Of a stretch of 64,000 bases of DNA, positions 20,650-41,564 are shown piece after piece (positions within the stretch are counted from its first letter, which is position 1; every line of letters begins with the position of its first letter). A program made the translations under genes and the position numbers. The notes under the pieces are model-generated. The model saw nothing but the letters and a program-made list of their open reading frames with translations, ran no database searches and had not been told where the DNA came from. The DNA is taken from positions 21,300 to 85,299 of the forward strand of contig JAEUUZ010000004.1 in the NCBI GenBank assembly GCA_016786765.1. The letters are read 5' to 3'. The stretch is from Chitinophagales bacterium. GTDB taxonomy: Bacteria > Bacteroidota > Bacteroidia > Chitinophagales > LD1.

Positions 20650-21615
20650 TTATTTTTTTTGATTTTGGGCTTCAATCCACTTGTAGGTTTGCGTCATACC
20701 ATCTGCTAGCATTGACGATGGAGCCCATTTCAGCTTTTCTTTAATTAAACGGTTATCGGAGTTTCTTCCACGAACACCCATTGGACCGGGGATATTATTA
20801 AGTGTTAATGCCTTGCCTGAAATAGAAATAACGAGTTCAGCGAGTTCATTAATAGAAACCATTTCATCAGACCCTATATTAACAGGTCCAGCAAAATCAT
20901 TATCCATAAGTCGTTGTATTCCTTCTAAACACTCATCAATATAAAGGAATGAGCGAGTTTGAAGTCCATCCCCCCAAATCTCAATAGAAGAACCGGAGTT
21001 GGCTTGCGCTACCTTCCTGCATATAGCAGCCGGTGCTTTTTCTTTCCCGCCTGTCCACGTCCCCTCTGGGCCAAAAACATTATGAAAACGAGCTATTCTA
21101 ACATTTATGCCAAAGTTCTTTGCATAACTGAGGTAAAGTCGTTCACTGAATAGTTTTTCCCAACCATATTCGCTATCCGGATTAGCAGGATAAGCCGAAG
21201 ACTCTTCGCAGTTAGGGTTTGCAGGATCAAGCTGGTTATGCTCAGGATATATACATGCCGAAGACGAATAAAATATTTTACCAACCCCAAATTGTTTCAC
21301 TAACGATAAAATATTGAGATTGATTAATGCAGAATTGGTCATTAAATCGGCATCGTTATCGCCTGTAAAGATATATCCTGCACCGCCCATATCGGCCGCT
21401 AATTGATAAATGCAATCAAATTTTTCGTTGAGCACATCACTACAAAAAAGTGGATTGCGCAAATCTCCAATTACAAATTCGTTGGCAACAGAGTTACAAT
21501 ATTCCGGAAATTTCAAATCTACACCTCGAACCCAATATCCTTCTTGCTTTAGTCTTTTCACGAGATGTGCACCAATAAACCCTCCTGCTCCACATACCAA
21601 TGCCCTTTTGCTCAT
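20650..21615 (-). CDS. GDP-mannose 3,5-epimerase-like NAD-dependent epimerase (extended SDR)
   Basis: GAGGFIGAHL Rossmann motif. Long near-collinear matches to the plant GME sequence as I remember it: AADMGG.G(F/Y)I, SSACIYPE, RFHN.(F/Y)GP.GTW.GG.EKAPAA.CRK, WGDGLQTRSF..IDEC.EG, VNIGSDEMVS.NE.AE, PGP.GVRGRNSDN.LIKEKL.WAP. Confidence 0.7.
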   Translation of the reverse strand: MSKRALVCGAGGFIGAHLVKRLKQEGYWVRGVDLKFPEYCNSVANEFVIGDLRNPLFCSDVLNEKFDCIYQLAADMGGAGYIFTGDNDADLMTNSALINLNILSLVKQFGVGKIFYSSSACIYPEHNQLDPANPNCEESSAYPANPDSEYGWEKLFSERLYLSYAKNFGINVRIARFHNVFGPEGTWTGGKEKAPAAICRKVAQANSGSSIEIWGDGLQTRSFLYIDECLEGIQRLMDNDFAGPVNIGSDEMVSINELAELVISISGKALTLNNIPGPMGVRGRNSDNRLIKEKLKWAPSSMLADGMTQTYKWIEAQNQKK

Positions 21616-21776: not shown

Positions 21777-22688
21777 ATGAGAAAGGTTTTTCACGACCCT
21801 GCTTTACAGAAACAATTTGACAAGGATGGTTATGTTAGCCTGCCTTTTATTTCAAAAGAGAAAGTAGAATTATTAAAACAGGCTTTCTTCGACACCTTAC
21901 CGAAAAGTGGTGGTCAGTTGGGTGCTGACGATGTTAAAAACGGTCATACTATCACCTACGATTTTACTTTTATCGATAAAAATCCGGAATACAAAAAGTT
22001 AGTATTCGACATTATTGTAAAACAATTTGAACAAGAATACAACAACGTATTAGCTGATTACAAACCAATTATTGCCAATTTTATTCGCAAAAAAACAGAC
22101 GGTGGCGAAGTGCCATTGCATCAAAATTGGGCATTTGTGGAAGAAACGAAATATACCTCCGTTTCTATTTGGTGTCCATTGGTAGACAGTACCATTGAAA
22201 ACGGCACACTCCAAGTTGTACCCGGAAGTCATAAGCGGTTTGGACTACAACGTGGCCCCAAAGTGCCTTGGGAGTTGGAAGGCATAAAAAATGAAATCAT
22301 TAACGATTACCTCATTCCTCTTGAAACAAAGGCTGGCGATTGTGTTATTTTAGACGACAGCATTATTCATTATACTGCCATTAACAAAACCCCTGGATTA
22401 CGATTAACAATTCAATTGATTTTGATTCCGGCAGATACATACTCGTTACATTATGATTTAAAATCTTCTAACGATGGCGAGGTAAGTGTTTTGGAAGTAG
22501 ATCATGACTTTTACATGAAGTTCAATCCTTGGATGCAACCGAGCAATGTAAAAACAATTCGAAAAGAGAAGTTTGAATTTAAACCCATGTCAACTTCTCA
22601 ATTTGAAGCAAGATTAAAAGAACCAAAAATTGACGAAACCACAGGCCTGTTCGCCAAAATCAAAAAACTATTTTTGACGGAAGCTTAA
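21777..22688 (+). CDS. PhyH-family Fe(II)/2OG dioxygenase paralog 1 (variant HxN metal motif; MinD-like C-terminal tail)
   Basis: LHQNWAF (H115-Q-N117), NGTLQVVPGSH, SIIHYTAINK...LRLT. C-terminus ...EPKIDETTGLFAKIKKLFLTEA. Confidence 0.75.
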   Translation: MRKVFHDPALQKQFDKDGYVSLPFISKEKVELLKQAFFDTLPKSGGQLGADDVKNGHTITYDFTFIDKNPEYKKLVFDIIVKQFEQEYNNVLADYKPIIANFIRKKTDGGEVPLHQNWAFVEETKYTSVSIWCPLVDSTIENGTLQVVPGSHKRFGLQRGPKVPWELEGIKNEIINDYLIPLETKAGDCVILDDSIIHYTAINKTPGLRLTIQLILIPADTYSLHYDLKSSNDGEVSVLEVDHDFYMKFNPWMQPSNVKTIRKEKFEFKPMSTSQFEARLKEPKIDETTGLFAKIKKLFLTEA

Positions 22689-22706
22689 TCTATAAATCAC
22701 AACACT

Positions 22707-23675
22707 ATGTTTCAGTTTCCAGCACAAATGATGCGTGTTTTTAAAGATGAGCAAATGCAAGCGGCTTTCGAGCGCGATGGCTTTGTGATTGTTGATTTTT
22801 ATACCAATGATGAAGTTGTGCAACTGGAGAAGTTGTATTCCGATTTACACCCTGTGGAAGAAAAAGGCTTTTACCCCAGTACTTTTTCGAAAGACAAAAG
22901 ATATAGACAAACAGCAGATGAAGAAGTAAGACGTGTGGGTTCAAGATGGATGAATGAAAACTTACAGGATTTCAAAACGATGTGTGGCAGTTTTATTGTA
23001 AAGTATCCCGGGGCCGATAGTACGATGTGTGTTCACCAAGATATGACCTTAGTGGATGAAACTAAATTTACCGGAATCAATATTTGGTGTCCGTTAATTG
23101 ACTTAACTGATGAGAATGGGGTTATACAAGTACTTAAGGGAAGCCATAGAATTATTCCAACATATAGAGGAGCCACTGTACCTTGTTTATATGGAGGTAT
23201 GAAGGACAATGACATTATACCCTATTTATCGCCTGTATATTTGAAAGCAGGGCAGGCTGTAATTTTCGACCAAAGTATTATCCACTATTCAGCAGCTAAT
23301 CTTTCCGATAAAATTAGAATTACAACAAATATTTATTTCACACATAAAGATGCTGATTTTAGAATTGCGTACTACAACAAAGATGCGCATGGCGATAAAG
23401 TAGAACTGTTTGAAGAAGATGATTCTTTCATGACCAACTTCGAACAGTTTGGCGACAATATTTTCGACAAACCAAAAATTGGGAAAAGCATAGGATTATT
23501 CGATTACAATTTCCCGAAGTTAGATGCAGCTTGGCTTGCAAGTCTTTATCCTGAAAAAGCAAAAGAAATAAAAGCAAAACAAGAGGCATTAACTACAGTA
23601 TTCAATCCACAACCAGAACAGAAATCAGAAAAAAAATCATTTTTCAAACGACTTTTCGAAACAATAGCGAACTAA
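22707..23675 (+). CDS. PhyH-family Fe(II)/2OG dioxygenase paralog 2 (C-terminal amphipathic tail)
   Basis: VHQDMTLVDE, NIWCPLIDLTDENGVIQVLKGSH, SIIHYSAANLSDKIRIT. C-terminus PQPEQKSEKKSFFKRLFETIAN. The start may instead be the Met pair 7-8 codons in. Confidence 0.78.
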   Translation: MFQFPAQMMRVFKDEQMQAAFERDGFVIVDFYTNDEVVQLEKLYSDLHPVEEKGFYPSTFSKDKRYRQTADEEVRRVGSRWMNENLQDFKTMCGSFIVKYPGADSTMCVHQDMTLVDETKFTGINIWCPLIDLTDENGVIQVLKGSHRIIPTYRGATVPCLYGGMKDNDIIPYLSPVYLKAGQAVIFDQSIIHYSAANLSDKIRITTNIYFTHKDADFRIAYYNKDAHGDKVELFEEDDSFMTNFEQFGDNIFDKPKIGKSIGLFDYNFPKLDAAWLASLYPEKAKEIKAKQEALTTVFNPQPEQKSEKKSFFKRLFETIAN

Positions 23676-24658
23676 TGGTAGAACCAATTTTTCAAGACCC
23701 TGAACTGCAAACGCAATTCGAATCGCAAGGCTATGTGAAAATTCCATTTTTAACGCAAGACGAAGTTACACACCTTGTAAATTTGTTTTGGGAATTACAT
23801 CCATCCATTGACACCAAAGGGTTTCAATCGAGCAGTTACTCAAATGATTATTCCTATAAAAAAAAGGCTAGCGATTTAGTTACAGCAGTTTTCAAAACGC
23901 ATTACGAAAAGATTTTTAAAAATTATAGAGCATTTGGTTCAGCATACTTATACAAACAACCCGACACCTATTCAGAGTTACCTGTGCATCAAGACTGGAC
24001 AATTGTAGACGAAGAACAATATGTTGCTTTAAATATATGGGTACCACTTATTGATGTAACTTCTTTTAATGGAGCATTACATGTAATGCCGGGTAGTCAT
24101 TATGGTGTTTTGAAACCCTTGCGCTGTCCTACGTTGCCAATGTTTTTTGACGGTTATGAACAACTGATGATTGCCAATTCCATTCCAATGGAAGTGAAAG
24201 CAGGTGAGGCTGTTGTATTGAATCAAAGCATTGTGCATTATTCTCCGCCAAACAAAAGTGATAAAATCAGAATTGCCATTACTTCAGGGGTAATGAGTGC
24301 TGCACCTAAAATGAATTTTCACTATTGTCCCGATCGTTCGAAAAACGAAGTCGAGGTATTTGAAATGGAAGATGACTTTCTAATCAGCTTTGAAAATTTT
24401 TACGAAGCGATTTTAAAACGTCCGTTGATGGGAAAAAGTTTAGGAATGAAACCTTACAACATACCACTCCTTAACGAATCGGAACTGCATGAGATGCTTC
24501 TAAAAATGAAAGAACGTGCTGGACTACCTCCTGTTTTAGTGGAGTCAACACCGATTAAAAACAATATTGTAGTTGAAGAAAAAATAAACTTGGAACCTAC
24601 TCCTAAAGTCGAGCCAACGTTAATTCAACGCATTGCTTCATTTTTCCAAACACATTAA
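23675..24658 (+). CDS. PhyH-family Fe(II)/2OG dioxygenase paralog 3 (C-terminal amphipathic tail)
   Basis: VHQDWTIVDE, NIWVPLIDVTSFNGALHVMPGSH, SIVHYSPPNKSDKIRIA. C-terminus EPTPKVEPTLIQRIASFFQTH. 1-nt TAATG overlap with paralog 2. Confidence 0.78.
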   Translation: MVEPIFQDPELQTQFESQGYVKIPFLTQDEVTHLVNLFWELHPSIDTKGFQSSSYSNDYSYKKKASDLVTAVFKTHYEKIFKNYRAFGSAYLYKQPDTYSELPVHQDWTIVDEEQYVALNIWVPLIDVTSFNGALHVMPGSHYGVLKPLRCPTLPMFFDGYEQLMIANSIPMEVKAGEAVVLNQSIVHYSPPNKSDKIRIAITSGVMSAAPKMNFHYCPDRSKNEVEVFEMEDDFLISFENFYEAILKRPLMGKSLGMKPYNIPLLNESELHEMLLKMKERAGLPPVLVESTPIKNNIVVEEKINLEPTPKVEPTLIQRIASFFQTH

Positions 24659-24666
24659 GCACAGAT

Positions 24667-25566
24667 ATGATTCCTGTTTTAAAAGATTCCGAACTAGAAG
24701 CACTGTTGACCGGAGAAGGATTTGTGGTATTACCATTTTTGAATGAAACAGAAGTGGCATATCTGGTAGACTTATATAACACGCATCATACCGATTCGAA
24801 AGAAGGCTTGTATGCTACAGCGCATTCATCGGATCGCGATTTCAAAATGAAGTTGAATGTTGAAATTCTAAAACAATTTGAACGAGCTATCGAACACTAT
24901 TTTTTGAACTGCCGTCCCCTGGGTGGATCATACATAACAAAATATAAAGGTCAAAACGGATCTTTACTTCCACATCAAGATTGGTCGATAGTAGATGAAG
25001 AACAATTCCGCTCTTTTAATATTTGGATTCCATTGGTTGATACTACAGAAGAGAATGGAGCTATTTGTGTTTTACCGCACAGCCACACACTGTTAAAGAG
25101 TTTTAGAGGAGTGAATGTGCCTGATCCTTTTTATAAAATCAGTGATTATACTTGGAAGTATCACCAAACGTTGAACATGAAGGCAGGTGAAGCATTGCTC
25201 TACGACCATAGGTTGCTGCATGCATCGGGCATTAATCAAACGGAACAGCCCCGATTAGCTGTAGTGTTTGGCATTATTCCGGAAAAGGCTGAAATGCGTT
25301 ATCACTTCATAGAGAACGGTGTAATTTCAGAATACGAGAGCAACTTAGATTTCTTCTTCAACTTCGATATTCTTAAAGGACCACAAGGATTAAAAAAATT
25401 AAGAGACTTAGAATACACAGTGAATCCTTTAACAGAAGAAGACTTCGATTATCTTTATTTGGGTATTGAAAAGAAAAAACCAACGCCTATTGAAGCACCT
25501 GTAGCACAACCCCTCACCCCTTCAACAGAAGGCCTTTGGGGGAAGTTAAAACGACTATTTTCGTAA
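24667..25566 (+). CDS. PhyH-family Fe(II)/2OG dioxygenase paralog 4 (C-terminal amphipathic tail)
   Basis: PHQDWSIVDE, NIWIPLVDTTEENGAICVLPHSH, RLLHASGINQTEQPRLA. C-terminus PTPIEAPVAQPLTPSTEGLWGKLKRLFS. Confidence 0.78.
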   Translation: MIPVLKDSELEALLTGEGFVVLPFLNETEVAYLVDLYNTHHTDSKEGLYATAHSSDRDFKMKLNVEILKQFERAIEHYFLNCRPLGGSYITKYKGQNGSLLPHQDWSIVDEEQFRSFNIWIPLVDTTEENGAICVLPHSHTLLKSFRGVNVPDPFYKISDYTWKYHQTLNMKAGEALLYDHRLLHASGINQTEQPRLAVVFGIIPEKAEMRYHFIENGVISEYESNLDFFFNFDILKGPQGLKKLRDLEYTVNPLTEEDFDYLYLGIEKKKPTPIEAPVAQPLTPSTEGLWGKLKRLFS

Positions 25567-25592
25567 TTCGACTTTTCTTTTGATATTGCTTT

Positions 25593-26576
25593 ATGATATA
25601 TATACTGATTACAGTTTTTTTTATTGGTGTTGCCGTTGTTACATTCCTATTGTTGCAGAAAACAAGAAATACAAACACCGTAAATACTGAAAAAACAGAG
25701 CTTGTTAACACTACATCTCCAGAAAAAGTTAAAGCTTTTTACAATCAATACAATGATAAATTTTTAGAAGTCTATGGCGATGTTATTCAGGCATTCCGAA
25801 CAACCGATGTAAGCAAACTTTTGGATTATGAGATTGCCAGCATGGAATTGAAATCCGGCATGAATATTTGTGATGCTGGATGTGGTGTTTGTGGCCCTGC
25901 GATATACTTTGCTGAACAATGTGATGTAACAGTGAGTGCTGTAACTATCTCTGAAGTTCAACTGAAAGAAGCTAACAAGAGAATTTTGTTGAAGGGGCTA
26001 AACAACAAAGTAAATGTACACTTGGGTGATTATCATCAACTCCCATCACTCTTCGCAAAAGAAACTTTTGATGTAGTGTACTTTTTGGAATCATTCGGAC
26101 ATTCCAATAATCACAGTAAAGCCATTGATGCGGCTTGGGATGTTTTAAAACCGGGAGGAACGCTGTACATTAAAGATTTGTTTCGGAAAATTGCAGTGAT
26201 CGAAGAGCACCAGCAAAAAATCGATTACGAGATTGGCAGAATTAACGAAGCCTATAAATACAATGTTGCCGATTTATACAAAGTGTTAGATGCTATGCGC
26301 AGAAAGGGTTTTGCTATATGCTTCGTTAAAACGATTGATTTAAAATTGGAAGACTTTGAAAACTTGACCATCTCCAATGATTTTCAAGAATTGACCGGTA
26401 TTGCGAAAATTGAAAATTGGGAAGACTACATTTTCCCTGTTGATTTTTTTGAGATTAAATGCTACAAACCTCAACATGAATTGCAATATGGATTAGATAA
26501 ATATTTCCTCCAAAATATGTATTGGATGCAGGTTCACAATAAACAACAAAACGAATTAGACTACGGAAAACTTTAA
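25593..26576 (+). CDS. Membrane-anchored class I SAM-dependent methyltransferase
   Basis: N-terminal TM helix MIYILITVFFIGVAVVTFLLL followed by KTR, so the catalytic domain is predicted cytoplasmic. Motif I ICDAGCGVCGPAIYFA, then ...LKPGGTLYIKD. Motif I resembles the sterol/tocopherol/CMAS-type MT pattern LD.GCG.GGPA. Confidence 0.75.
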   Translation: MIYILITVFFIGVAVVTFLLLQKTRNTNTVNTEKTELVNTTSPEKVKAFYNQYNDKFLEVYGDVIQAFRTTDVSKLLDYEIASMELKSGMNICDAGCGVCGPAIYFAEQCDVTVSAVTISEVQLKEANKRILLKGLNNKVNVHLGDYHQLPSLFAKETFDVVYFLESFGHSNNHSKAIDAAWDVLKPGGTLYIKDLFRKIAVIEEHQQKIDYEIGRINEAYKYNVADLYKVLDAMRRKGFAICFVKTIDLKLEDFENLTISNDFQELTGIAKIENWEDYIFPVDFFEIKCYKPQHELQYGLDKYFLQNMYWMQVHNKQQNELDYGKL

Positions 26577-26580
26577 CGCA

Positions 26581-27861
26581 TTACTGTTGCTCTACTTTCC
26601 ATGCTAATCGTTTAAGGAGTGGAGAGGGTAATCCACCCCAAACAGCTTTTGCAATCCATTCATCTTTTACTATTTCGAATGTATAAAACTGAAACGGTAT
26701 TGGCACTTCCTTTCCATCGCGCCCAATAACCAAGGTATGCTTGTATGTTCCGCTATTGAAAAAATAGGGCTCGTAAAAACTTGTATACACATAAGTACCC
26801 GATGGCTGAGGTTGATGTACTTCACCTTCGCGAAATGCAGGTGCATCGGTTGTAATCCATGTCCCGAATAAATCCAATATTTTCGAACCTAATTGCAGAT
26901 AACCTTCATCACATTTCTTTTCAATTACATACTCGATTTCGATAGCATCACTAATGTAAATGGCCGCATCATGAGCTTTGTTACTTGCTTTCACGCGAAC
27001 AGAAATTAATCGAAAGAAATCATTCTGCGGAGTAAGACTATTGTTTAAATCAAACTGAATTCTACCGGCTTCGTCTTTACCAGTAAATGACGACAATTCT
27101 ATTGCAGCATTTTGTTTGTTCAGCGCTATAAGATAATCAGCAAAAACTAATTTAGGATTGCCCTGAGCAGCAATCTTTCCTTCGCGTATTAATACACAGC
27201 GAGAACAGAACTCGATTACTTCAGAAGGATTATGACTTACAATAACAACTGTTTTCCCACTTCGAGCCAATGCAGAAATTTTCTGCTTTGCTTTTTCATG
27301 AAAGGCAGCATCTCCTACAGCCAAAACTTCATCTAGCAATAAAATATCGGCATCTAAGTGACTGAATACAGAAAAAGCCAAACGCAAATACATTCCGTTT
27401 GAATAGTTTTTTACCGGCTCATCTATAAACTCGCCAATGCCACTAAAATCAAGAATTTCAGCAAACACAGCATCAATTTTCTGTTTAGACATCCCTAATA
27501 AGCTGCCATTTAAATACACATTCTCTTTACCCGTTAAATCGGGGTGAAAACCTGCGCCAATACCAAGAATCGAACAAATCGTTCCATCTATTGCAATGGA
27601 GCCTGAGGTAGGTGGAATAATATTGCTTAATATCTGCAATAAAGTGCTTTTCCCTGAACCGTTCCGGCCAATTATCCCCAACACTTCCCCTTTCTGTATT
27701 TCGAGCGAAATATCTGTCAAAACATGATGCATATCAACTTTCCGATAACCCAATACATCCTTAAAAGCAAGTAGAATAGAGTTTTGAATGCCTTCACTTT
27801 TTAAATGCCGAAGTTCATAAGATTTGCTTAAGTGCTCAATTTTAATTGCCGGTTTTGTCAC
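26581..27861 (-). CDS. wzt: Polysaccharide ABC exporter ATP-binding protein, Wzt/TagH-type, with ~170-aa C-terminal extension
   Basis: GRNGSGKST Walker A, YSNGMYLRLAFSV signature, LLLDEVLAVGD Walker B, SH switch. Residues ~250-426 form an extra beta-rich domain where Wzt carbohydrate-binding domains sit. Confidence 0.8.
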   Translation of the reverse strand: MTKPAIKIEHLSKSYELRHLKSEGIQNSILLAFKDVLGYRKVDMHHVLTDISLEIQKGEVLGIIGRNGSGKSTLLQILSNIIPPTSGSIAIDGTICSILGIGAGFHPDLTGKENVYLNGSLLGMSKQKIDAVFAEILDFSGIGEFIDEPVKNYSNGMYLRLAFSVFSHLDADILLLDEVLAVGDAAFHEKAKQKISALARSGKTVVIVSHNPSEVIEFCSRCVLIREGKIAAQGNPKLVFADYLIALNKQNAAIELSSFTGKDEAGRIQFDLNNSLTPQNDFFRLISVRVKASNKAHDAAIYISDAIEIEYVIEKKCDEGYLQLGSKILDLFGTWITTDAPAFREGEVHQPQPSGTYVYTSFYEPYFFNSGTYKHTLVIGRDGKEVPIPFQFYTFEIVKDEWIAKAVWGGLPSPLLKRLAWKVEQQ

Positions 27862-27876
27862 ACTACACTATTTTCT

Positions 27877-28692
27877 TTAAATAAGTTCTGCCACATATCG
27901 TTCTACCTTTTTGAAATACATCAATCCTGCAACAAATAATAAAAGCATAAACAAAAAGATATAAATATATTGAATAGAAGGACAAGCTTCACCTAACAAC
28001 ACATAGCGGTAACCATCTAAAACACCTGCCATAGGATTTAAATAGGTTAACCAAAAATAACGTTCCGGAATAATTGAACCCGGATAAAAAACCGGTGTAA
28101 GCCAGATACTGAAATTAATCATGTAAGGCACAATGTGATGCAGATCACGATTTCGAATGGTAAGTGCATTTATCCATATAGTAATACATAACCCAACAAG
28201 AATATTCATAACAATTACTACCGGCAAAAACACAATTGACCAAGATAATGGATGGGCGAAAACGAACATTAGCAAAAGCATTACAGCTAACGATATTAGG
28301 AATTCGATAAGCCCTACTACCACTTTAGACAAGGGCAAAATAAATTTGGGGAAATAGATTTTTTGAATCAGGGTTTGATTTTGAATGAGAGATGTGCTTG
28401 CTCCATTTAAAATAAACGAAAAATAATTCCATCCGAGCATACCTGAAAAAGCGAAGAGTGGATAAGGAGAATGCATCCCCTTAATTTGGATAAGTTTATC
28501 GAAAAACAAAGTAAATACTAACATTCCGGCCAATGGTTGCAAAGCCGACCACAGAATACCAAATTTAGCTTGTGCGTATTTTACTTTCAATTCACGTGAT
28601 GCCAACACAATTACTAAATACCGATAGCTCCATACTTTCTTTAAATAAGTGAAAAGCGAATCTTCTTTAGCTTGAATGTATTGAATTGCCAT
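27877..28692 (-). CDS. wzm: ABC-2 type polysaccharide exporter permease (Wzm-type)
   Basis: 271 aa with 6 predicted TM helices. N-terminal ...YRYLVIVLASRELKVKYAQAKFGILWSALQP is the ABC-2 family hallmark. Lies directly upstream of wzt. Confidence 0.8.
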   Translation of the reverse strand: MAIQYIQAKEDSLFTYLKKVWSYRYLVIVLASRELKVKYAQAKFGILWSALQPLAGMLVFTLFFDKLIQIKGMHSPYPLFAFSGMLGWNYFSFILNGASTSLIQNQTLIQKIYFPKFILPLSKVVVGLIEFLISLAVMLLLMFVFAHPLSWSIVFLPVVIVMNILVGLCITIWINALTIRNRDLHHIVPYMINFSIWLTPVFYPGSIIPERYFWLTYLNPMAGVLDGYRYVLLGEACPSIQYIYIFLFMLLLFVAGLMYFKKVERYVAELI

Positions 28693-28714
28693 GAATCTAT
28701 TATTAGCGTTGCAT

Positions 28715-29560
28715 TTAATGACTGATGGCTTCCAAAACCTCTTCTATGGTTACAGGATTATTGACATATGATTCTAAGACTTCATATCCTTTATCAGTAG
28801 GCGCTTTCACCATTGAATCTTCGCGAAGACGTTCATACCGGTAGGTGAAATCATCGTCCGGATGATGAACTTCCAACGCTAATCCCGGTTCGGGTTGATG
28901 ATATATTTGGAACGATGCCTCTTGAGGTAAAATAGCCGATTGGATAACTATGCGTTCCATATCACTTTGGTTAGCGGGAGAGCCGTGAATAGTATTCAAA
29001 AAGAAAAGCAATGCTTCGCCTGCTTTCATAGAAAAAACCGTTGAGCGCATTTTCAACTCTTCCAAAATTGGTTTGTAATTCGGGAACAAATAGCCTGCTC
29101 CGCGCACGGGGCGATTAATATTATGGCTTTTTTTCAATATCCACATTGCACCATTGTGCGCATCCACATCTTGGAGCGGTACCCATATATTAAACGAAGT
29201 ATATTTTGATTCATCAACAATACTCCAATCTTGATGTACAGGAAATGTTGTTTCCTCACCCTTGAGCTTTACGATGAACTGTTGATTTACGGCTCTATAG
29301 TTTTTGAAATTTCGCTCACAAGCTGCAGATAAGATACGTTCTAGGTTTTCTTTTATCGTTAACTTATAATTCAAATCAGGCGACCAAATCGTCATGTGGA
29401 TTCCATCGTACAACGCAGGGGGATTTTGACCTCCATGCAAATCTTTATAAAATGTTTGTACTTCATTCAACTCTTCAGGGGTTAAAAATGGAATGCGCAC
29501 CACTCCTTCTTGCTGCATTTGGGCTTCGAGTGCAGAATCTTTCAGTATGCTGCTTTTCAT
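28715..29560 (-). CDS. PhyH-family Fe(II)/2OG dioxygenase paralog 5 (no basic C-terminal tail)
   Basis: VHQDWSIVDE, NIWVPLQDVDAHNGAMWILKKSH, NTIHGSPANQSDMERIV. Ends ...VTIEEVLEAISH. Confidence 0.75.
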   Translation of the reverse strand: MKSSILKDSALEAQMQQEGVVRIPFLTPEELNEVQTFYKDLHGGQNPPALYDGIHMTIWSPDLNYKLTIKENLERILSAACERNFKNYRAVNQQFIVKLKGEETTFPVHQDWSIVDESKYTSFNIWVPLQDVDAHNGAMWILKKSHNINRPVRGAGYLFPNYKPILEELKMRSTVFSMKAGEALLFFLNTIHGSPANQSDMERIVIQSAILPQEASFQIYHQPEPGLALEVHHPDDDFTYRYERLREDSMVKAPTDKGYEVLESYVNNPVTIEEVLEAISH

Positions 29561-29601
29561 TTAATTTCGAATTTTATACGATCAATTTATTCGGCATCGC
29601 G

Positions 29602-30639
29602 TTATGCCGCAAATATTTTTCTCAATTTATCCAAAAACCCAACCGCTCTTTCTGGCTGAGAGGCTTCAACAGATGGAATTTCCATAGCAACATTATGTGC
29701 ACTCAAGGGTTCTACAATCATATTACAGTCAGTATGCCCCTGTTCGTTTAAATAGTTAACCGGTTTAATTCCATGCTCAGCACACAATGCAGTAAACTCA
29801 GCTTCCGTTATTTTCGGCCATTCATCTTCAACTAATGCAACAGTTTCACCTGTTTGCGGACGAGCATGACAATCAACCAAAAAATTTGGATTCGTGAGCA
29901 AGTAATCGTCATCATGTTGTATTACTTCAATTTTTGCATTCGGTATTGCCGGATCCTTCCAACAAGTTTGCAATTTTGCTTCAGTTGGAAATAAACCAGA
30001 TATAACCACTACGCGCTCTTTACCGGAAAGATTTTGCATAGAGTTATGTACAATACGATTGTCGAAAACCAATATATCTCCTGCTTTCATAAACAATGGC
30101 TGTAAATATCTACGAACAGCGAAGTGAATATCATCGTATGGCGCAGGGAATGAAATACTACGATATGGCGAAAACATTTTATGACTTCCGGGCATCACAC
30201 ACATGGCTCCATTATCTGCCGTAATATCCTCTAACGGAATCCACAAACTTAAAGGAGAATACTTAAATTCATCCAAGCCTGTTGTATCTTGATGTACATA
30301 AAACTCACTTCGTGGTCCTGATGCTTTTACTATGTATGAATTCAACATCATCTTGTAATCCCCTAACCATTGATCGAGATATGGTTTTAGAATTGCCCCT
30401 ATTTCGTCATGCATTTTTCTTCGGTACACAAGATCTTGCGAATAGACACTATAAAACATACCCCCTTCACCATTTTCAAAATGATGTGTGGCGGCAAAAA
30501 GTGATTGCAATGCTTCTAATGATGATTCACTTAAACGACCATGAACCGAAAATCCATCTGTATCAATTCGTTCGCGGAGCTCTGAATCGGTAATATAGTG
30601 GTGTGCAACGGGTTGCCATGCTGTTTCTCTACTTATCAT
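29602..30639 (-). CDS. PhyH-family Fe(II)/2OG dioxygenase paralog 6 (C-terminal amphipathic tail)
   Basis: VHQDTTGLDE, SLWIPLEDITADNGAMCVMPGSH, RIVHNSMQNLSGKERVV. C-terminus PSVEASQPERAVGFLDKLRKIFAA. Confidence 0.75.
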   Translation of the reverse strand: MISRETAWQPVAHHYITDSELRERIDTDGFSVHGRLSESSLEALQSLFAATHHFENGEGGMFYSVYSQDLVYRRKMHDEIGAILKPYLDQWLGDYKMMLNSYIVKASGPRSEFYVHQDTTGLDEFKYSPLSLWIPLEDITADNGAMCVMPGSHKMFSPYRSISFPAPYDDIHFAVRRYLQPLFMKAGDILVFDNRIVHNSMQNLSGKERVVVISGLFPTEAKLQTCWKDPAIPNAKIEVIQHDDDYLLTNPNFLVDCHARPQTGETVALVEDEWPKITEAEFTALCAEHGIKPVNYLNEQGHTDCNMIVEPLSAHNVAMEIPSVEASQPERAVGFLDKLRKIFAA

Positions 30640-30711: not shown

Positions 30712-31707
30712 GTGAAATCCTTCCTGAGAAAAATCAGAATTAGCGACCCTTGGAACTATAAAATTCCATTTCTAATTGCTATTCCATACTTATATGCTTT
30801 CCATAGTTCTTTTTATTATTCTTTTGGTGCACAAAATTTCATTTTTAAATTCTTCTTATCTTATATAACAATCATTGGTATAGCAGGATTTGCCTACACG
30901 TTAAACGACTTTACCGATAGAAAAAAGGACGAAGCGGCCGGAAAAGAAAACCTACATATCCATAAACCCATTTGGTTTTCGATGGGTATTCTTTTACTAT
31001 TCCTGAGTATTGCGTTAGCGCCTTGGTGTTACTTCCCAAAAACAGTTTACACATTATCGCTACTCAGTATTGAACTATTGCTTTTTGTGTTGTATTCCGT
31101 CCCGCCATTCCGCTTCAAAGAAAGAGGATTTTTAGGCGTGATTACTGATTCCCTTTATGCGCATGCCATTCCGGCTCTGCTGGCGCTAACAGCTTTCGAT
31201 CAAAATGGAGAACTGCCCTTCAACACGATTAGGGGATTATCGATAACTCTTCTTCTTTGGCAATTATTTCTAGGTATAAGAAACATACTCTTTCATCAAA
31301 TTGCAGACTCTAAGAACGATATCAAAAGCGGAATTAAAACATTTGTAACAAGCACTTCAATTCCTAAAACAGAACTATTGCTGAAGAAACTTTTCATACC
31401 GCTTGAGGTGATTAGTTTTTCCCTTTTTTGCCTTATCCTATCATTAACTTATTTTTTGATGTCGCTCACTCTTTTAGCCATCTATATACTATATCTTTTC
31501 TACCAAAGAAAGGGGTACCACTCTAGCACTCATCCGGTATACCGCAAGTTCTGTTACTTTTTTCTAGACGATTTCTACATCGAATGGCTGCCGATTTTTT
31601 TTCTCTTGTGGTTATTAACCATTGACATACGCTATATTGTACCGCTAGTACTCCACGTATTACTTTTCAGAAATTGCTTCAAACGTTTGTTAAAACTAAA
31701 CTTTTGA
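30712..31707 (+). CDS. UbiA-superfamily polytopic membrane transferase (divergent)
   Basis: About 8-9 TM helices. First Asp-rich motif NDFTDRKKD (NDxxDxxxD) after TM2. Second motif ADSKNDIKSGIKTF (DxxxD...G..T). GTG start. Confidence 0.65.
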   Translation: MKSFLRKIRISDPWNYKIPFLIAIPYLYAFHSSFYYSFGAQNFIFKFFLSYITIIGIAGFAYTLNDFTDRKKDEAAGKENLHIHKPIWFSMGILLLFLSIALAPWCYFPKTVYTLSLLSIELLLFVLYSVPPFRFKERGFLGVITDSLYAHAIPALLALTAFDQNGELPFNTIRGLSITLLLWQLFLGIRNILFHQIADSKNDIKSGIKTFVTSTSIPKTELLLKKLFIPLEVISFSLFCLILSLTYFLMSLTLLAIYILYLFYQRKGYHSSTHPVYRKFCYFFLDDFYIEWLPIFFLLWLLTIDIRYIVPLVLHVLLFRNCFKRLLKLNF

Positions 31708-35976: not shown

Positions 35977-37377
35977 CTATTTCCCCTTTCCGTACACCAC
36001 AGTTTTCACAGTGTAAATCAAAATTTTGAGATCCATAACGATGCTCATATTTTCGATATAAATCAAATCATACTTCAAACGTTTCACCATTTCTTCAACG
36101 GTAGAAGCATAGCCATACTTTACCATTCCCAACGAGGTAATTCCGGGCTTTACTTTAAATACATGTGTGTATTGTGGTACTACTTTCTCGATTTGCTCTG
36201 CAAAATATTTTCGCTCGGCTCTAGGCCCAACAATCGACATATCTCCCTTAATGACATTAATAAATTGCGGTAATTCATCTACACGGAATTTACGCATCCA
36301 CAGCCCAACTTTTGTAATGCGAGGATCGGCATTGCTTGTTAGCTTAGGACCCTGCGCCTCTGCATCATTGCGCATTGAGCGAAACTTCATAATAAAGAAA
36401 GGCTTCCCGTATTGTCCAAGTCGTTCCTGTAAATAAAACACTCCACCTTCTGAATCTAATTTAATCAATACCATAACCACCACCCACACCGGGAAGGTAA
36501 TTAGCATAGCTAACACTGAAGCAATCACATCAAACCAGCGTTTACCAATTCGTTCCCACTCATCAATTAATACCGGAGGAATTTCAATAAATGCTTCTCC
36601 AACTACATGATTCATCTTCACAGTACGTGAAAGAATATCATACATGTCGGGTATAATTTTAATGAACACATTTCGATCGCCAACACTATGCATCAAATTC
36701 GTGAGCTCGGCATGTTGTTCTGTATTCACTGCTAAAATCACCTCTTCAATGCGCTCATTCACAATAAAAGAATCAATTGCTGAAAGGGAAACAGATGGTA
36801 CACCGTTGATGACGTCTCCATTATCCGTAAATGAAAGTCCTTTCAACACCAAGCCGAAGCGTTTATCGATGGCAAGAGATTTCATTACTTCTTCTACCTT
36901 CGCTTGTGTTCCAACGATTAAAGTATTAAACCCAATCCTACCTGAACGGATAAGAAATTTAGTGTAATTCAAATAAGAAAAACGCAAACTGATAGAGAAC
37001 AATAATTGCGCAAAAAACAAGGCTAAAAAGGTGAGGTAGTAATCTTTATATTCTTTCACCAAATCATCCAATAAAAATGCAAAAAAGATAATAACACAGC
37101 CTACTAAGGTAACCACCAATGTCTTCAGGAACTCCTGCAATCGCGACTTACGGAAAACATCTACATACGTGCCGGTGAAGTAATGCAACAATACCCAGAT
37201 TTGCGGAATTACAATTAAACCGATATAAAAGTTGGTATCTCGAAATGGCGTTTCAATATCCGCTTTAAAATGTTCGATATAGAATTTTCGGAAATAATAG
37301 AGCGTCATCCATGCTAATAAAGCAGCTAGGATATCGAGTACAAGATAAAAAAAGATAAACCTCTTTCTTCGATGCAT
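35977..37377 (-). CDS. WbaP-type polyprenyl-phosphate hexose-1-phosphate transferase (initiating phosphoglycosyl transferase)
   Basis: 4-5 N-terminal TM helices, a central Rossmann-like region, and a C-terminal bacterial sugar-transferase domain: KRWFD...FYLQERLGQYGKPFFIMKFRSM, DPRITKVGLWMRKFRVDELPQF.NV.KGDMS.VGPR. Confidence 0.88.
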   Translation of the reverse strand: MHRRKRFIFFYLVLDILAALLAWMTLYYFRKFYIEHFKADIETPFRDTNFYIGLIVIPQIWVLLHYFTGTYVDVFRKSRLQEFLKTLVVTLVGCVIIFFAFLLDDLVKEYKDYYLTFLALFFAQLLFSISLRFSYLNYTKFLIRSGRIGFNTLIVGTQAKVEEVMKSLAIDKRFGLVLKGLSFTDNGDVINGVPSVSLSAIDSFIVNERIEEVILAVNTEQHAELTNLMHSVGDRNVFIKIIPDMYDILSRTVKMNHVVGEAFIEIPPVLIDEWERIGKRWFDVIASVLAMLITFPVWVVVMVLIKLDSEGGVFYLQERLGQYGKPFFIMKFRSMRNDAEAQGPKLTSNADPRITKVGLWMRKFRVDELPQFINVIKGDMSIVGPRAERKYFAEQIEKVVPQYTHVFKVKPGITSLGMVKYGYASTVEEMVKRLKYDLIYIENMSIVMDLKILIYTVKTVVYGKGK

Positions 37378-38309: not shown

Positions 38310-39893
38310 TTATTTTGCAATAATCATACTCGCTACTTGAGCTACAACACCATTCTGCAAACGGGCGTAATAAAGCCCGGGCAATAGATTTTCATTATAA
38401 AAATCAACTACATATTTGCCTTGCGCCATATCTTGATCGATTAACACTTTAATCAGCTTTCCTTCACCGTCAAATACTTGCACTAGCGTTTGGCCGCCTC
38501 CGGTAGTAAATTCAATTTTTGTCTTTTCCACAAACGGATTAGGATAATTGCGAATAAGATTAATACCCGCTTTTGAATTGATATCATGAACTGCTGTAGA
38601 TGTACAACCGCTTGGATCCACTAATGGCAATGCTTGGAAGTTTTGCAATAACATTGTGTTGTCAATCACCGTTTTCGGTACACAAAACCAATCTTGTAGC
38701 AACGAGGCATACACCGAACGAAAATCGTACTGCATCGGCAAATTATCGTTCACTGTTGTAGCTGTTGAAATTGTTGGATTATTCCCCAAAATACCCGGTA
38801 TTACTTTGTTCCCAAACACAAACAATGGTGCTGCGGCTCCATGATCGGTTCCTTCTGAATAGTTAGAAACAATTCTTCTTCCGAACTCTGAAAACGTCAT
38901 CCCCGTAACCCGATCGGCTACACCTAATCCTTGTAAATCGTCTTGGAATGCTTTGATTGCCGATGATAACTTCGCTAACAAAGTAGCATGATCGCCTGTA
39001 TCCGTTGCCCCTGCAACCACTTGTCCGGAGTGGGTATCGAAGCCGCCTATATTTACTAAATACACTCGTGTTTTTAAACCACCGCCAATCAAACGTGCTA
39101 CGATTTTTAACTGATCGGCTAAATCGTTATTGGCCGGATACGCACCTTGCGATGTTACACTTGTTGCTGCATCTTTAATTACTTGTGTATACGTTTGCGT
39201 TTGGCCTGCAATGGTCCGCACATAAGCTAATTCTTTCCCCGCATTGGTTGCAGGAACAGGGTCTTGAACACCATTCAACAAATTATACAAACTGGTAGGA
39301 TCCGAAATTGCCATAGCCATGTTTACGGTTGGCCCCTGAAACAATGGCGATACAAAAGACCCTATTTGAATCGCTAAAGGATCGGTCATTGTTGCATTTG
39401 GATAGCCGGAAGGAAAATTCGGATACTCATAATTTAAGTATCTTCCCATTACACCCGTAGGTAAATTTTGATTGGAATCGGCTCCGGTTACCCAAATATC
39501 TGTTGCTCGGAAATGCGAAAAATTCGGGTTGGGATAACCTACAGATTGAACTATACGCAACTTACCATCATTATACATTTGCTGCATTTCGGGCATGGCC
39601 GGATGCAAACCTGTTGCTGTAGTTCCGTTTAGCGGTAATACTTTGGAGCTGTTTATCAAAATATTACTTCGCAAACCCGACAAGGCACTGTATTGATCCA
39701 AAGGAATAACAGTATTCAATCCATCGTTCCCTCCGGTCATCTGAATCAACACCAATACATGGTCGGTATCCGAATCATTTGCCGTTAACGCTGAAATTAA
39801 TGGCGAAGCGCCAAAGGCTTTAATTGTCATTCCACTTAACAATGCCGGCAAAACAGCTACAGGTGTGGCTTTTAAAAATGTTCTACGTTTCAT
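38310..39893 (-). CDS. DUF1501-family (sulfatase/phosphatase-superfamily-like) protein with Tat signal and type-A T9SS C-terminal domain
   Basis: N-terminus MKRRTFLKATPVAVLPALLSGMTIKAFGA (RRxFLK). Core GGNDGLN..., GGFDTH, GTDHG. C-terminal ~80 aa NYPNPFVEKTKIEF...GLYYARLQNG... matches the Por_Secre_tail pattern. Confidence 0.75.
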   Translation of the reverse strand: MKRRTFLKATPVAVLPALLSGMTIKAFGASPLISALTANDSDTDHVLVLIQMTGGNDGLNTVIPLDQYSALSGLRSNILINSSKVLPLNGTTATGLHPAMPEMQQMYNDGKLRIVQSVGYPNPNFSHFRATDIWVTGADSNQNLPTGVMGRYLNYEYPNFPSGYPNATMTDPLAIQIGSFVSPLFQGPTVNMAMAISDPTSLYNLLNGVQDPVPATNAGKELAYVRTIAGQTQTYTQVIKDAATSVTSQGAYPANNDLADQLKIVARLIGGGLKTRVYLVNIGGFDTHSGQVVAGATDTGDHATLLAKLSSAIKAFQDDLQGLGVADRVTGMTFSEFGRRIVSNYSEGTDHGAAAPLFVFGNKVIPGILGNNPTISTATTVNDNLPMQYDFRSVYASLLQDWFCVPKTVIDNTMLLQNFQALPLVDPSGCTSTAVHDINSKAGINLIRNYPNPFVEKTKIEFTTGGGQTLVQVFDGEGKLIKVLIDQDMAQGKYVVDFYNENLLPGLYYARLQNGVVAQVASMIIAK

Positions 39894-39926
39894 CCTATTC
39901 GTTTATAACGTCTATTAAAAGTTCGA

Positions 39927-41564
39927 TTAACTCAATTGATATTCGGGCATTTCCATAATAAATGCATACATGTATTGAAGGCGTGTCAATACAATTTGCT
40001 TCTTGGATGCATTGGTTGGATCAGCAACATAATCGTTCCAAGCATTCGTCCAATAATAATCAGATGCTTGTCCGGAAAGCAATGTATAGGTTTTAAGGTA
40101 AGCCTTCCACGCTGCAGAAACCTCCATGGTATACATCATAGTTAATACATCGTCAATTAATGTATTCGGATTGGATGGATCAGAAAAAGTTGCTGTTAAA
40201 GCAATAGTATCCATAATCAATTTATAACCTGATTTAGTTACACCGGCATACAACAAACCATCGGTGAAATTTTTCCGCTTAGGCATGGTATCACTGTTAA
40301 TCCATAGCTCGTGAAAGGCCGGTTCTTGATAGTATGCAGGCCATCCGGCAACACTTGGCTGATCTAATAAATCTTGCGCCATAGTGGCTGAAAACTGTTC
40401 ACCTAATAGCCAGAAATAATATTGATTTTGTAGCGCAGTGGCATCTGGAAAAACCAACTTATTCTCTCTGCAAAATCCTACTGTAAAGTCAACAGAAGAT
40501 TTAATCATGCAACTCCTATTCGCCATATCAAAAAAGTGTTCGCTTTTAAATAGTATTGAAAGCACCGGTTTGATATCGTAATTATTAGCGCGGAACACTT
40601 GTGCTAACGGAACAATTACATTCGTTTCGATATCAGCATCAATTGTATAATAGACAAAAAATCGATATAACTTTCTGCACACAAACAAAGCGCACTCTTC
40701 ATTCAAAAAGAGCATATCCAATAAATCGTCTAACTCATTCTGCCCGTTGGGGCCGCTTTGTCCAAGAATTACAGTGTTGTTATAAAAAGTTGAAAACTGT
40801 TTATCGGTAGCATCATGCCGAGCAGGATCAAAGTATGACGTATTATTTAAACTATCATCTCTATACCCGGTGAGTACACGTGCCGCTGCTTTTACATCAT
40901 CCTCGGTGTACAAGGAATTGGGACCCTTCCCGATACAAAAAAGCTCTTGCAATTCACGCGCATAATTTTCATCAGGCACCCCTTTTTTGTTTTTGTTTCC
41001 ATTCAAATACACCAACATAGCAGGTTCTAAAGTAATGGCCTTTGTTAACGCTTTAAAATTACCCAATGCGTTTGCCCGAATAGTTTCTAGATAACGATAC
41101 CCATAGCGAGGTTCAGCATAGTTTTGAATTTGTGTTGCAAAATGGTTTTGCCAACACAAGGTCATTTTCTGCTCAATGCTTCGGCTTTGATTAATCATCA
41201 AACCCATCCACCACGCTTTGAGCGAAGCCCCTCTTAACCCTGTTACTCCGGGTACAGGCGGTGAATTCACCCATGTTTGCCCAAATGTGGCATAGGCATC
41301 ATCATCTGTGTTGGTGTAATTCTTTAATGGTGGTGCCGGTGGCGAAACTGAAGCGTTGAGCAACTCATTTACACTGTCGTTCATACCCTGACTTAAAAAA
41401 TAATTGATATCGTCAAAGGTGGCCCCAAACAGGGTCCGTTTCAGCAAATGAACTACTTCATTTTTGGTCCATACTCCGGTGTAGGGTGTAAGTCCGGACG
41501 TAGATCGAGAAGATTTTGGGTGAACAGTGGCATCAGCAGCCCCAAAAAGGAGATTATTCGACAT
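39927..41564 (-). CDS. DUF1800-family protein (usual partner of DUF1501)
   Basis: VVHLLKRTLFGAT near the N-terminus and ~545 aa of helical sequence. Lies immediately upstream of the DUF1501 gene, which is the conserved pairing. Confidence 0.65.
   Translation of the reverse strand: MSNNLLFGAADATVHPKSSRSTSGLTPYTGVWTKNEVVHLLKRTLFGATFDDINYFLSQGMNDSVNELLNASVSPPAPPLKNYTNTDDDAYATFGQTWVNSPPVPGVTGLRGASLKAWWMGLMINQSRSIEQKMTLCWQNHFATQIQNYAEPRYGYRYLETIRANALGNFKALTKAITLEPAMLVYLNGNKNKKGVPDENYARELQELFCIGKGPNSLYTEDDVKAAARVLTGYRDDSLNNTSYFDPARHDATDKQFSTFYNNTVILGQSGPNGQNELDDLLDMLFLNEECALFVCRKLYRFFVYYTIDADIETNVIVPLAQVFRANNYDIKPVLSILFKSEHFFDMANRSCMIKSSVDFTVGFCRENKLVFPDATALQNQYYFWLLGEQFSATMAQDLLDQPSVAGWPAYYQEPAFHELWINSDTMPKRKNFTDGLLYAGVTKSGYKLIMDTIALTATFSDPSNPNTLIDDVLTMMYTMEVSAAWKAYLKTYTLLSGQASDYYWTNAWNDYVADPTNASKKQIVLTRLQYMYAFIMEMPEYQLS

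Follow-up and report, generated by a model that had tools for sequence, protein, structure and literature searches.

Six PhyH-family paralogs and their C-terminal tails

The window analysed here is a 64,000-nucleotide stretch of DNA from a Chitinophagales bacterium (GenBank assembly GCA_016786765.1, contig JAEUUZ010000004.1, positions 21,300 to 85,299 of the forward strand). It carries six paralogous genes, P1 to P6, whose products are predicted from sequence to be Fe(II)/2-oxoglutarate dioxygenases of the PhyH family, clustered with genes for a methyltransferase, a Wzm/Wzt-type ABC transporter, a UbiA-like protein, and a WbaP-like sugar-phosphate transferase. A sequence-only reading of this DNA had described six dioxygenase paralogs, five of which end in a flexible linker followed by a short amphipathic tail like the membrane-targeting sequence of MinD, and it is these tails, probably membrane tethers, that concern us. 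All six open reading frames (ORFs) are present and match the Pfam PhyH profile PF05721, with E values of 1e-17 to 2e-21 (65-77 bits against a cut-off of 22), and pairwise identity among them is 23-31%:

21777..22688, + strand: P1, 303 aa, PhyH paralog (Pfam PF05721, E 1.4e-20)
22707..23675, + strand: P2, 322 aa, PhyH paralog (Pfam PF05721, E 7e-18)
23675..24658, + strand: P3, 327 aa, PhyH paralog (Pfam PF05721, E 3e-20)
24667..25566, + strand: P4, 299 aa, PhyH paralog (Pfam PF05721, E 2.4e-21)
28715..29560, - strand: P5, 281 aa, tail-less PhyH paralog (Pfam)
29602..30639, - strand: P6, 345 aa, PhyH paralog (Pfam)

The five tailed C-termini read in the ORF translations exactly as first reported, and P5 indeed lacks a tail, ending instead in the acidic sequence ...IEEVLEAISH (net charge -3). 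The tails are the last 11-14 residues of each protein, and each follows a linker:

22617..22643, + strand: P1 linker KEPKIDETT, polar and Pro-containing
22644..22685, + strand: P1 tail GLFAKIKKLFLTEA, near B. subtilis MinD GMMAKIKSFFG (10-mer hydrophobic moment 0.72, charge +3, Wimley-White -5.5 kcal/mol)
23604..23636, + strand: P2 linker NPQPEQKSEKK
23637..23672, + strand: P2 tail SFFKRLFETIAN, with E. coli MinD-like spacing (hydrophobic moment 0.70, permutation p = 0.007)
24542..24619, + strand: P3 linker ESTPIKNNIVVEEKINLEPTPKVEPT
24620..24655, + strand: P3 tail LIQRIASFFQTH (hydrophobic moment 0.57, permutation p = 0.019)
25471..25530, + strand: P4 linker KKKPTPIEAPVAQPLTPSTE (residues 271-290)
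25531..25563, + strand: P4 tail GLWGKLKRLFS (hydrophobic moment 0.70, charge +3)
29641..29706, - strand: P6 linker (aa 312-333), after the end-of-core motif C-N-M-I-V-E-P (aa 304-311, 29707-29730)
29605..29640, - strand: P6 tail GFLDKLRKIFAA

The large hydrophobic residues had been said to fall at i, i+1, i+4, i+7, and i+8 in every tail. This is exact for P1, P3, P4, and P6, which share it with B. subtilis MinD (MMAKIKSFF), but P2 follows i, i+1, i+4, i+5, i+8, the spacing of E. coli MinD (FLKRLF). The best window of 10 residues in each of the five tails has a hydrophobic moment of 0.69-0.82 (Fauchere-Pliska scale) and a net charge of +1 to +3; the moments of the E. coli and B. subtilis MinD targeting sequences are 0.55-0.57 on the same scale. 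Their hydrophobic periodicity is maximal at 90-100 degrees, as in a helix, and permutation tests with shuffled tails gave p = 0.007-0.03 for P2, P3, P4, and P6. The full 14-mer of P1 was not significant (p 0.2), the amphipathicity being diluted by the LTEA at its very end, whereas its 10-residue core was. Rough Wimley-White interfacial estimates came to -3.9 to -6.1 kcal/mol for the five tails, -4.0 and -5.1 kcal/mol for the two MinD sequences, and +1.2 kcal/mol for the end of P5.

AlphaFold2 (AF2) models of P6 and P4 agree with the proposed layout of a disordered spacer followed by a helical tail. For P6, modelled with 30 orthologues, the mean predicted local distance difference test score (pLDDT) was 86.6, with the core above 90; the linker (residues 311-333) scored 44-55, falling below 50 over residues 318-329, and was followed by a predicted helix over residues 335-344 at ~70. 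The P4 model (mean pLDDT 88.7) likewise has a linker at 54-59 over residues 271-290 and a predicted helix over residues 290-298 at ~79.

Tails in orthologues and related loci

P6 has 308 relatives in a protein search, and the counts of P6 orthologues given here rest on the best 120, at 44-96% identity; the closest public relative is a Chitinophagaceae metagenome-assembled genome (MAG; L001), at 97% identity over P6. Among these best 120 matches, 53 orthologues end no more than 12 residues past the end-of-core motif C-N-[LM]-I-x-E-P and 57 run on by a further 14-62 residues, with a median of 29. Their spacers, in which E, K, P, A, T, and N abound, cannot be aligned among orthologues, and a basic amphipathic ending closes 49 of the 57 extended proteins, for example, GFFSKLKKIF, GFWDKIKALF, SFFQRLFSW, GFFGRLFGRRK, and GILSWFKK. 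On a neighbour-joining tree of P6 cores (110 tips), presence of the extension changes at least 16 times, compared with a mean of 37 for shuffled labels. Thus, the tail is heritable yet has been repeatedly gained or lost.

Scanning the P6-orthologue alignment against one genome per species yielded 79 related loci, mostly in Chitinophagales, Saprospiraceae, Flavobacteriales, and Crocinitomicaceae, with a few in Proteobacteria (Lysobacterales, Rhodanobacteraceae, Hydrocarboniphaga, Henriciella, and Arenicella). Local ORF calling used a minimum length of 150 aa, a procedure in which the choice of start codon leaves the C-termini unaffected, and 379 of the 1052 locus ORFs matched PhyH profiles, the usual count being 5-9 paralogs per locus. 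Under a loose criterion of amphipathicity and charge, tails ended 49% of the PhyH ORFs and, as background, 13.5% of the neighbouring ORFs; an amphipathic helix is the last element of many folded domains, SGNH hydrolases among them. Requiring in addition a polar 12-residue linker gave 35.6% for PhyH and 4.9% for neighbours (p = 5e-38). Counted outside the window and its two near-duplicates, the two MinD spacing patterns occur in the last 16 residues of 134 of 361 PhyH proteins (37%) as against 25 of 611 neighbours (4%; Fisher p = 5e-41), and in 87 of 6964 internal 16-residue PhyH windows (1.2%). Several of the tail-positive neighbours are proteins with SGNH-type folded terminal helices.

Each of the six orthogroups includes tailed members. 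Outside the window, a tail is found on roughly half of the P5 orthologues (KKSFFQRLFA, GFWSRVKGLFGGK, KRKWWSFLKA), so that the absence of a tail from P5 is a feature of this lineage, and the description of five tailed paralogs out of six, which is correct for the window, does not extend to the family. The acidic end of P5 was considered as a variant tail and rejected, as it is the last helix of the fold and the same helix precedes the spacer and tail in tailed P5 orthologues. The short FFxRLF type dominates among P2 orthologues. Across the family, the tail consensus is [KN][KS][GST]-[FL]-[FWL]-x-[KR]-[LIV]-[KR]-x-[LFI]-F, which keeps the hydrophobic face and the K/R positions at its flanks but varies on the polar face. 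Conserved periodicity with a variable polar face is as expected of lipid binding and unlike a specific protein groove. About half of the orthologues have no tail. The suggestion that selection acts on the tail itself is supported, since the tail recurs in six orthogroups and across the 79 loci behind linkers of unrelated sequence that range from 14 to 62 residues.

Exchange of a transmembrane helix for an amphipathic peptide in the methyltransferase

The gene downstream of P4 encodes a methyltransferase:

25593..26576, + strand: S-adenosylmethionine-dependent methyltransferase, CMAS/Methyltransf_11-like (Pfam), with an N-terminal transmembrane (TM) helix at nucleotides 25596-25658

Its conservation extends to 44 loci, in 35 of which the protein opens with a TM helix that a linker joins to the catalytic domain, starting from ...FYNxxxDxFLxVYGxVIQAFRT. 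The other nine score without a TM helix; L072 is borderline, and the L054 protein has a weak N-terminal peptide only. A short N-terminal peptide, basic and amphipathic, takes the place of the TM helix in six or seven loci. In L006, L011, L015, L016, L038, L058, and L063, which have no such helix, the proteins start with MFYIMLKKILNLFK, MNFLTNITKFFSVK, MKSLIKIIRLFSKK, MIMFKKFFKKK, MINFFKKK, MIKALSKFFK, or MSLLDIFRKPK. Furthermore, L045 encodes a 602-aa fusion of a P4-like PhyH protein to the methyltransferase (L045:15584-17392), and at its junction a tail motif of a second type (RSFFEMYTPKNIIAEAKYRLRKK; type B, below) plus a spacer stands in place of the methyltransferase TM helix. At one position of the same enzyme, a true TM anchor can thus be exchanged for a short amphipathic peptide, and this exchange is the strongest computational argument that such peptides serve as membrane anchors. 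The CMAS/cyclopropane-fatty-acid-synthase-like family, to which the methyltransferase belongs, often acts on lipids.

Three of the loci in which the TM helix is replaced (L011, L015, and L038) come from Flavobacterium MAGs.

A second, sequence-conserved tail

Alongside the degenerate MinD-like tails (type A), a tail of ~22 residues that we call type B, R[ST]FF[QE]KY[ST]PxN[IV]xxEIx[WY]R[LM]KG, ends 37 of the 379 PhyH ORFs and 0 of the 673 other ORFs. It is absent from the window; examples in related loci are L017:12120-14147, L011:17840-18784, L043:19502-20548, and L070:9640-10689. Often there is exactly one per locus, frequently on a 620-750-aa protein with two PhyH domains. The sequence specificity of type B suggests a recognition motif and hence a partner.

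Proteins of 620-750 aa occur in L003, L011, L015, L017, L033, L038, L045, L047-L049, L051, and L055 and also in L057, L061, L063-L065, L067, L070, L071, and L073. Each of five that were scanned with Pfam has two PhyH domains, and most carry a single terminal tail, usually of type B; no relic of a tail was seen between the two PhyH domains in the few proteins of this size inspected.

A membrane tether and its alternatives

At the level of sequence, the tails have every hallmark of the MinD/WbdD class of membrane-targeting helices. The likely reading is that they are amphipathic helices that tether the dioxygenases to the cytoplasmic leaflet by binding lipid. In each tailed paralog, a disordered spacer of variable length would link the soluble PhyH-fold Fe(II)/2-oxoglutarate core to a basic amphipathic helix, 10-12 residues long. 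This helix would lie in the plane of the leaflet in the manner of MinD, its Phe/Leu/Ile/Trp face buried and its Lys/Arg residues turned toward anionic head groups. One such helix would bind weakly and reversibly, and the enzymes would thereby be concentrated at the membrane surface as if on a leash.

Several observations weigh against a tether. Roughly half of the orthologues have no tail, nor does P5 in the window, and the cluster variants L026, L027, L054, and L060 have many PhyH paralogs, nearly all tail-less, among different neighbour genes, so that a tether must be dispensable or replaceable. In 37 relatives, the sequence-conserved type-B tail is found at this position instead. For E. coli MinD, one targeting sequence is reported not to bind stably unless the protein dimerizes, being too weak by itself (PMC8155659), and by analogy one helix per monomer would be expected to give a transient, leash-like association unless the oxygenases oligomerize. 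The AF2 output came without predicted aligned errors or contacts, and the tail helix could pack on the core or on a partner. Finally, tail types are mildly concordant within loci, with 102 same-type pairs as against 84.7 +/- 7 expected from orthogroup alone (18 of 2000 shuffles reach this value), but since loci share ancestry, this concordance cannot separate a shared partner from lipid binding.

Such a partner is at the heart of one alternative, that the tail docks onto a protein shared by the enzymes, such as Wzt, Wzm, the methyltransferase, or a scaffold, and assembles a multienzyme complex without binding lipid. A core, a variable disordered linker, and a short terminal peptide are also the layout of FtsZ, the SSB tail offers a further analogy, the type-B tail is highly sequence specific, and the within-locus concordance is in keeping with docking, as is the possibility that a single weak MinD-type helix may be insufficient alone (PMC8155659). 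However, the residue conservation that a partner groove would require holds for type-B tails only. Type-A tails are degenerate, keeping nothing but their periodicity and flanking K/R residues through forms such as KRKWWSFKS, GILSWFKK, and MLNRLIERIKLML. Moreover, a like peptide replaces a true TM helix at the methyltransferase N terminus, which fits membrane anchoring, and the tails match both MinD targeting variants, which are described as lipid binders (PMC8155659). On balance, we regard docking without lipid binding as unlikely.

It is less likely still that the helix acts within or between the enzymes, as a lid or in autoinhibition or oligomerization, with no role in localization. C-terminal lids occur in some Fe(II)/2-oxoglutarate oxygenases, and AF2 places the helix with moderate confidence (70-79), but the linker is predicted with low confidence and varies from 14 to 62 residues, half of the orthologues do without a tail despite near-identical cores, interfacial helices typically have just such a basic, aromatic composition, and no covarying core surface was identified. 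Nor do we give much credence to the tail being nonfunctional or unrelated to localization, whether as an ending that is amphipathic by chance, as a degron, or as a secretion signal, which we consider highly improbable. Some 4-13% of unrelated neighbours do end likewise under loose criteria, and the -FAA ending of P6 faintly recalls the -LAA of ssrA, but the enrichment is 7-10 fold (p <1e-35) and the tail is found in all six orthogroups and in several phyla. A degron was rejected because the terminal residues are not conserved (TEA, IAN, QTH, LFS, FAA) and follow no end rule. A type IX secretion system (T9SS) C-terminal domain or secretion signal and a tail-anchor TM segment were likewise rejected, as the tail, at ~10 residues, is much shorter than such elements and is amphipathic, not a 20-residue hydrophobic segment.

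Relation to known membrane-targeting systems

The E. coli MinD targeting sequence is KGFLKRLFGG, as the sequence-only reading had it (PMC5471200), and that of B. subtilis MinD is KGMMAKIKSFFGVRS (PMC13537761). Like these, the tails are C-terminal amphipathic helices of 8-12 residues with a basic flank and a Gly/Ser cap. The B. subtilis form resembles P1 GLFAKIKKLF and the family consensus KGFFxKLKxLF, and the E. coli form resembles P2 SFFKRLFE and orthologues such as KKSFFQRLFG. MinD differs in having no long disordered spacer and in its ATP-driven dimerization switch, and the tails here are borne by unrelated Fe(II)/2-oxoglutarate oxygenases; the resemblance is convergent, not homologous.

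Another parallel is WbdD, the O-antigen terminator of E. coli O9a and K. pneumoniae O3 and O5, which an amphipathic helix at its C terminus keeps at the inner membrane (PMC3447403, PMC11231755) and which is likewise a cytoplasmic tailoring enzyme of a Wzm/Wzt-dependent pathway. The proteins described here differ from it in having a disordered spacer, in being dioxygenases, and in occurring as five or more paralogs, each with its own helix.

FtsZ consists of a globular core, a variable disordered linker, and a conserved, sequence-specific C-terminal peptide that binds protein partners. The dioxygenases share this tripartite layout, but type-A tails are degenerate and resemble lipid binders, whereas type B is nearer to FtsZ. 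LpxO and KdoO are Fe(II)/2-oxoglutarate hydroxylases that act on lipid A and Kdo at the cytoplasmic face; they belong to different oxygenase subfamilies, and LpxO is an integral membrane protein. We know of no MinD-like tail on either. Our literature search found no report of amphipathic membrane tails on PhyH-family enzymes or of peripheral membrane 2-oxoglutarate dioxygenases of this type, and no study of multidioxygenase PhyH clusters with Wzm/Wzt or polysaccharide genes. Thus, although the mechanism proposed for the tail is known from MinD and WbdD, its use by PhyH enzymes and the conserved multidioxygenase/Wzm-Wzt cluster appear to be undescribed.

If the tails are anchors, the dioxygenases would act on a lipid-linked glycan at the cytoplasmic face and not on soluble nucleotide sugars, which would guide both the choice of substrates and purification with the tail removed. 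Clusters in which 5-9 PhyH genes stand with UbiA, Wzm/Wzt, and a methyltransferase are widespread across Chitinophagales, Saprospiraceae, Flavobacteriales, and Crocinitomicaceae, and some Proteobacteria have them as well. With both MinD variants reinvented and with tailed and tail-less orthologues side by side, the family would also offer a natural series on what a weak leash contributes to pathway flux. As an annotation cue, a terminal [GS]-two hydrophobic residues-x-[KR]-hydrophobic motif after a disordered linker would flag peripheral membrane enzymes that TM predictors miss.

Genes around the dioxygenases

The other genes that bear on a pathway in the window are as follows:

20650-21615: NAD-dependent epimerase/dehydratase-family gene, at the opposite end of the cluster from the UbiA/WbaP side
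26581..27861, - strand: Wzt-like ABC ATPase (NCBIfam TagH/Wzt-type, E 2e-49 to 2.5e-54)
27877..28692, - strand: Wzm-like ABC-2 permease (NCBIfam Wzm/KpsM-type)
30712..31707, + strand: UbiA-family polytopic membrane prenyltransferase-like protein (Pfam PF01040, E 9e-14)
35977..37377, - strand: WbaP-like polyprenyl-phosphate sugar-phosphate transferase, Bac_transf (Pfam PF02397, E 5e-62)

The dioxygenases, the methyltransferase, Wzm, and Wzt are held in two convergent, operon-like gene runs. On the + strand, P1, P2, P3, P4, and the methyltransferase follow one another with intergenic gaps of 18, -1, 8, and 26 nucleotides; the - strand run consists of P6 (30639-29602), P5 (29560-28715), Wzm (28692-27877), and Wzt (27861-26581). 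Divergent from P6 are UbiA (30712-31707), a GT4 glycosyltransferase, an AsnB-like amidotransferase, and a weak SGNH-like ORF. As expected of a Wzm/Wzt-type pathway for a lipid-linked glycan, Wzm, Wzt, Bac_transf, and GT4 stand together in the cluster, and Wzt, Wzm, the methyltransferase, and UbiA/GT4 each recur in 34-49 of 80 loci. The membrane-associated neighbours that had been claimed for the dioxygenases were all found, namely, the methyltransferase with its N-terminal TM helix, UbiA, Wzm (together with Wzt), and the WbaP-like Bac_transf protein.

Placed beside these genes, leashed dioxygenases would be able to reach a polyprenyl-diphosphate-linked glycan begun by the WbaP-like transferase and built by the glycosyltransferases. 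The same glycan would be methylated by the TM-anchored methyltransferase and exported by Wzm/Wzt.

In the Wzt-like protein, the Pfam ABC_tran domain spans residues 48-179 only, and a C-terminal extension of ~175 residues matches no Pfam family. Wzt-type C-terminal extensions elsewhere bind the modified terminus of the glycan, and by analogy this one could read a mark left by the dioxygenases or the methyltransferase. Just past the cluster lies a DUF1501/DUF1800 gene pair (38310-41564), of which the DUF1501 protein has a T9SS C-terminal sorting domain, in keeping with the DNA being from Bacteroidota.

Active site, structural relatives, and candidate chemistry

Residues H115, H198, and R209 (P1 numbering) are invariant in P1-P6. 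The metal motif is HQD in P2-P6 and HQN in P1, where Asn117 is encoded by nucleotides 22125-22127; HQN is kept in 27 of 29 P1 orthologues, and the other five orthogroups have H-Q-D. In the P1 orthogroup, then, the predicted carboxylate ligand of the 2-His-1-carboxylate triad is replaced by Asn in a conserved change. This differs from halogenases, which have Ala or Gly at that position.

The AF2 models match PhyH-type structures and have the jelly-roll fold of the family. The best structural matches of the P6 model are MysH, HygX, AviO1, SnoK/SnoN, and EvdMO1 (Foldseek E ~1e-11, TM-score 0.4-0.57), and the best sequence matches of the profile in the PDB are SnoK (2.4e-8), PHYHD1, MysH (2e-6), PhyH, and AviO1 (2.9e-4). 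HygX, AviO1, EvdMO1, SnoK/SnoN, and MysH are PhyH-type oxygenases, several of which act on sugar moieties, but they are soluble enzymes of secondary metabolism with just 14-22% identity to the paralogs, and their database descriptions, by which we compared them, mention no membrane association. Because several of these relatives tailor sugars, C-H oxidation of a glycan fits as the chemistry of the paralogs, to which such likeness is a weak pointer. From the tails, the gene context, and the sugar-tailoring structural relatives together, we infer that the substrate is a lipid-linked glycan. In NCBIfam, the paralogs reach subthreshold matches only, to "sporadic carbohydrate cluster 2OG-Fe(II) oxygenase" models and a chlorinating enzyme model, so that no curated family covers them.

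A more far-reaching picture, which we put forward tentatively and hold to be doubtful as a whole, is that these clusters encode a conserved oxidative tailoring line at the membrane surface. Five to nine PhyH dioxygenases, among them the H-x-N orthogroup, would act in turn on a polyprenyl-linked glycan before its export by Wzm/Wzt, together with the CMAS-like methyltransferase (sometimes fused to PhyH), and would yield a surface polysaccharide in which C-H oxidation is unusually dense. Their reactions might include hydroxylation, epimerization, and the formation of orthoester or methylenedioxy bridges, as made by HygX, AviO1, and EvdMO1. Each enzyme would be stationed by one of two interchangeable tail codes, the degenerate MinD-like lipid anchor or the sequence-specific type-B motif.

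Among P6 orthologues, Cys226 and Cys257 never vary and Cys305 hardly does; these conserved cysteines and the end-of-core motif may form a structural or metal site.

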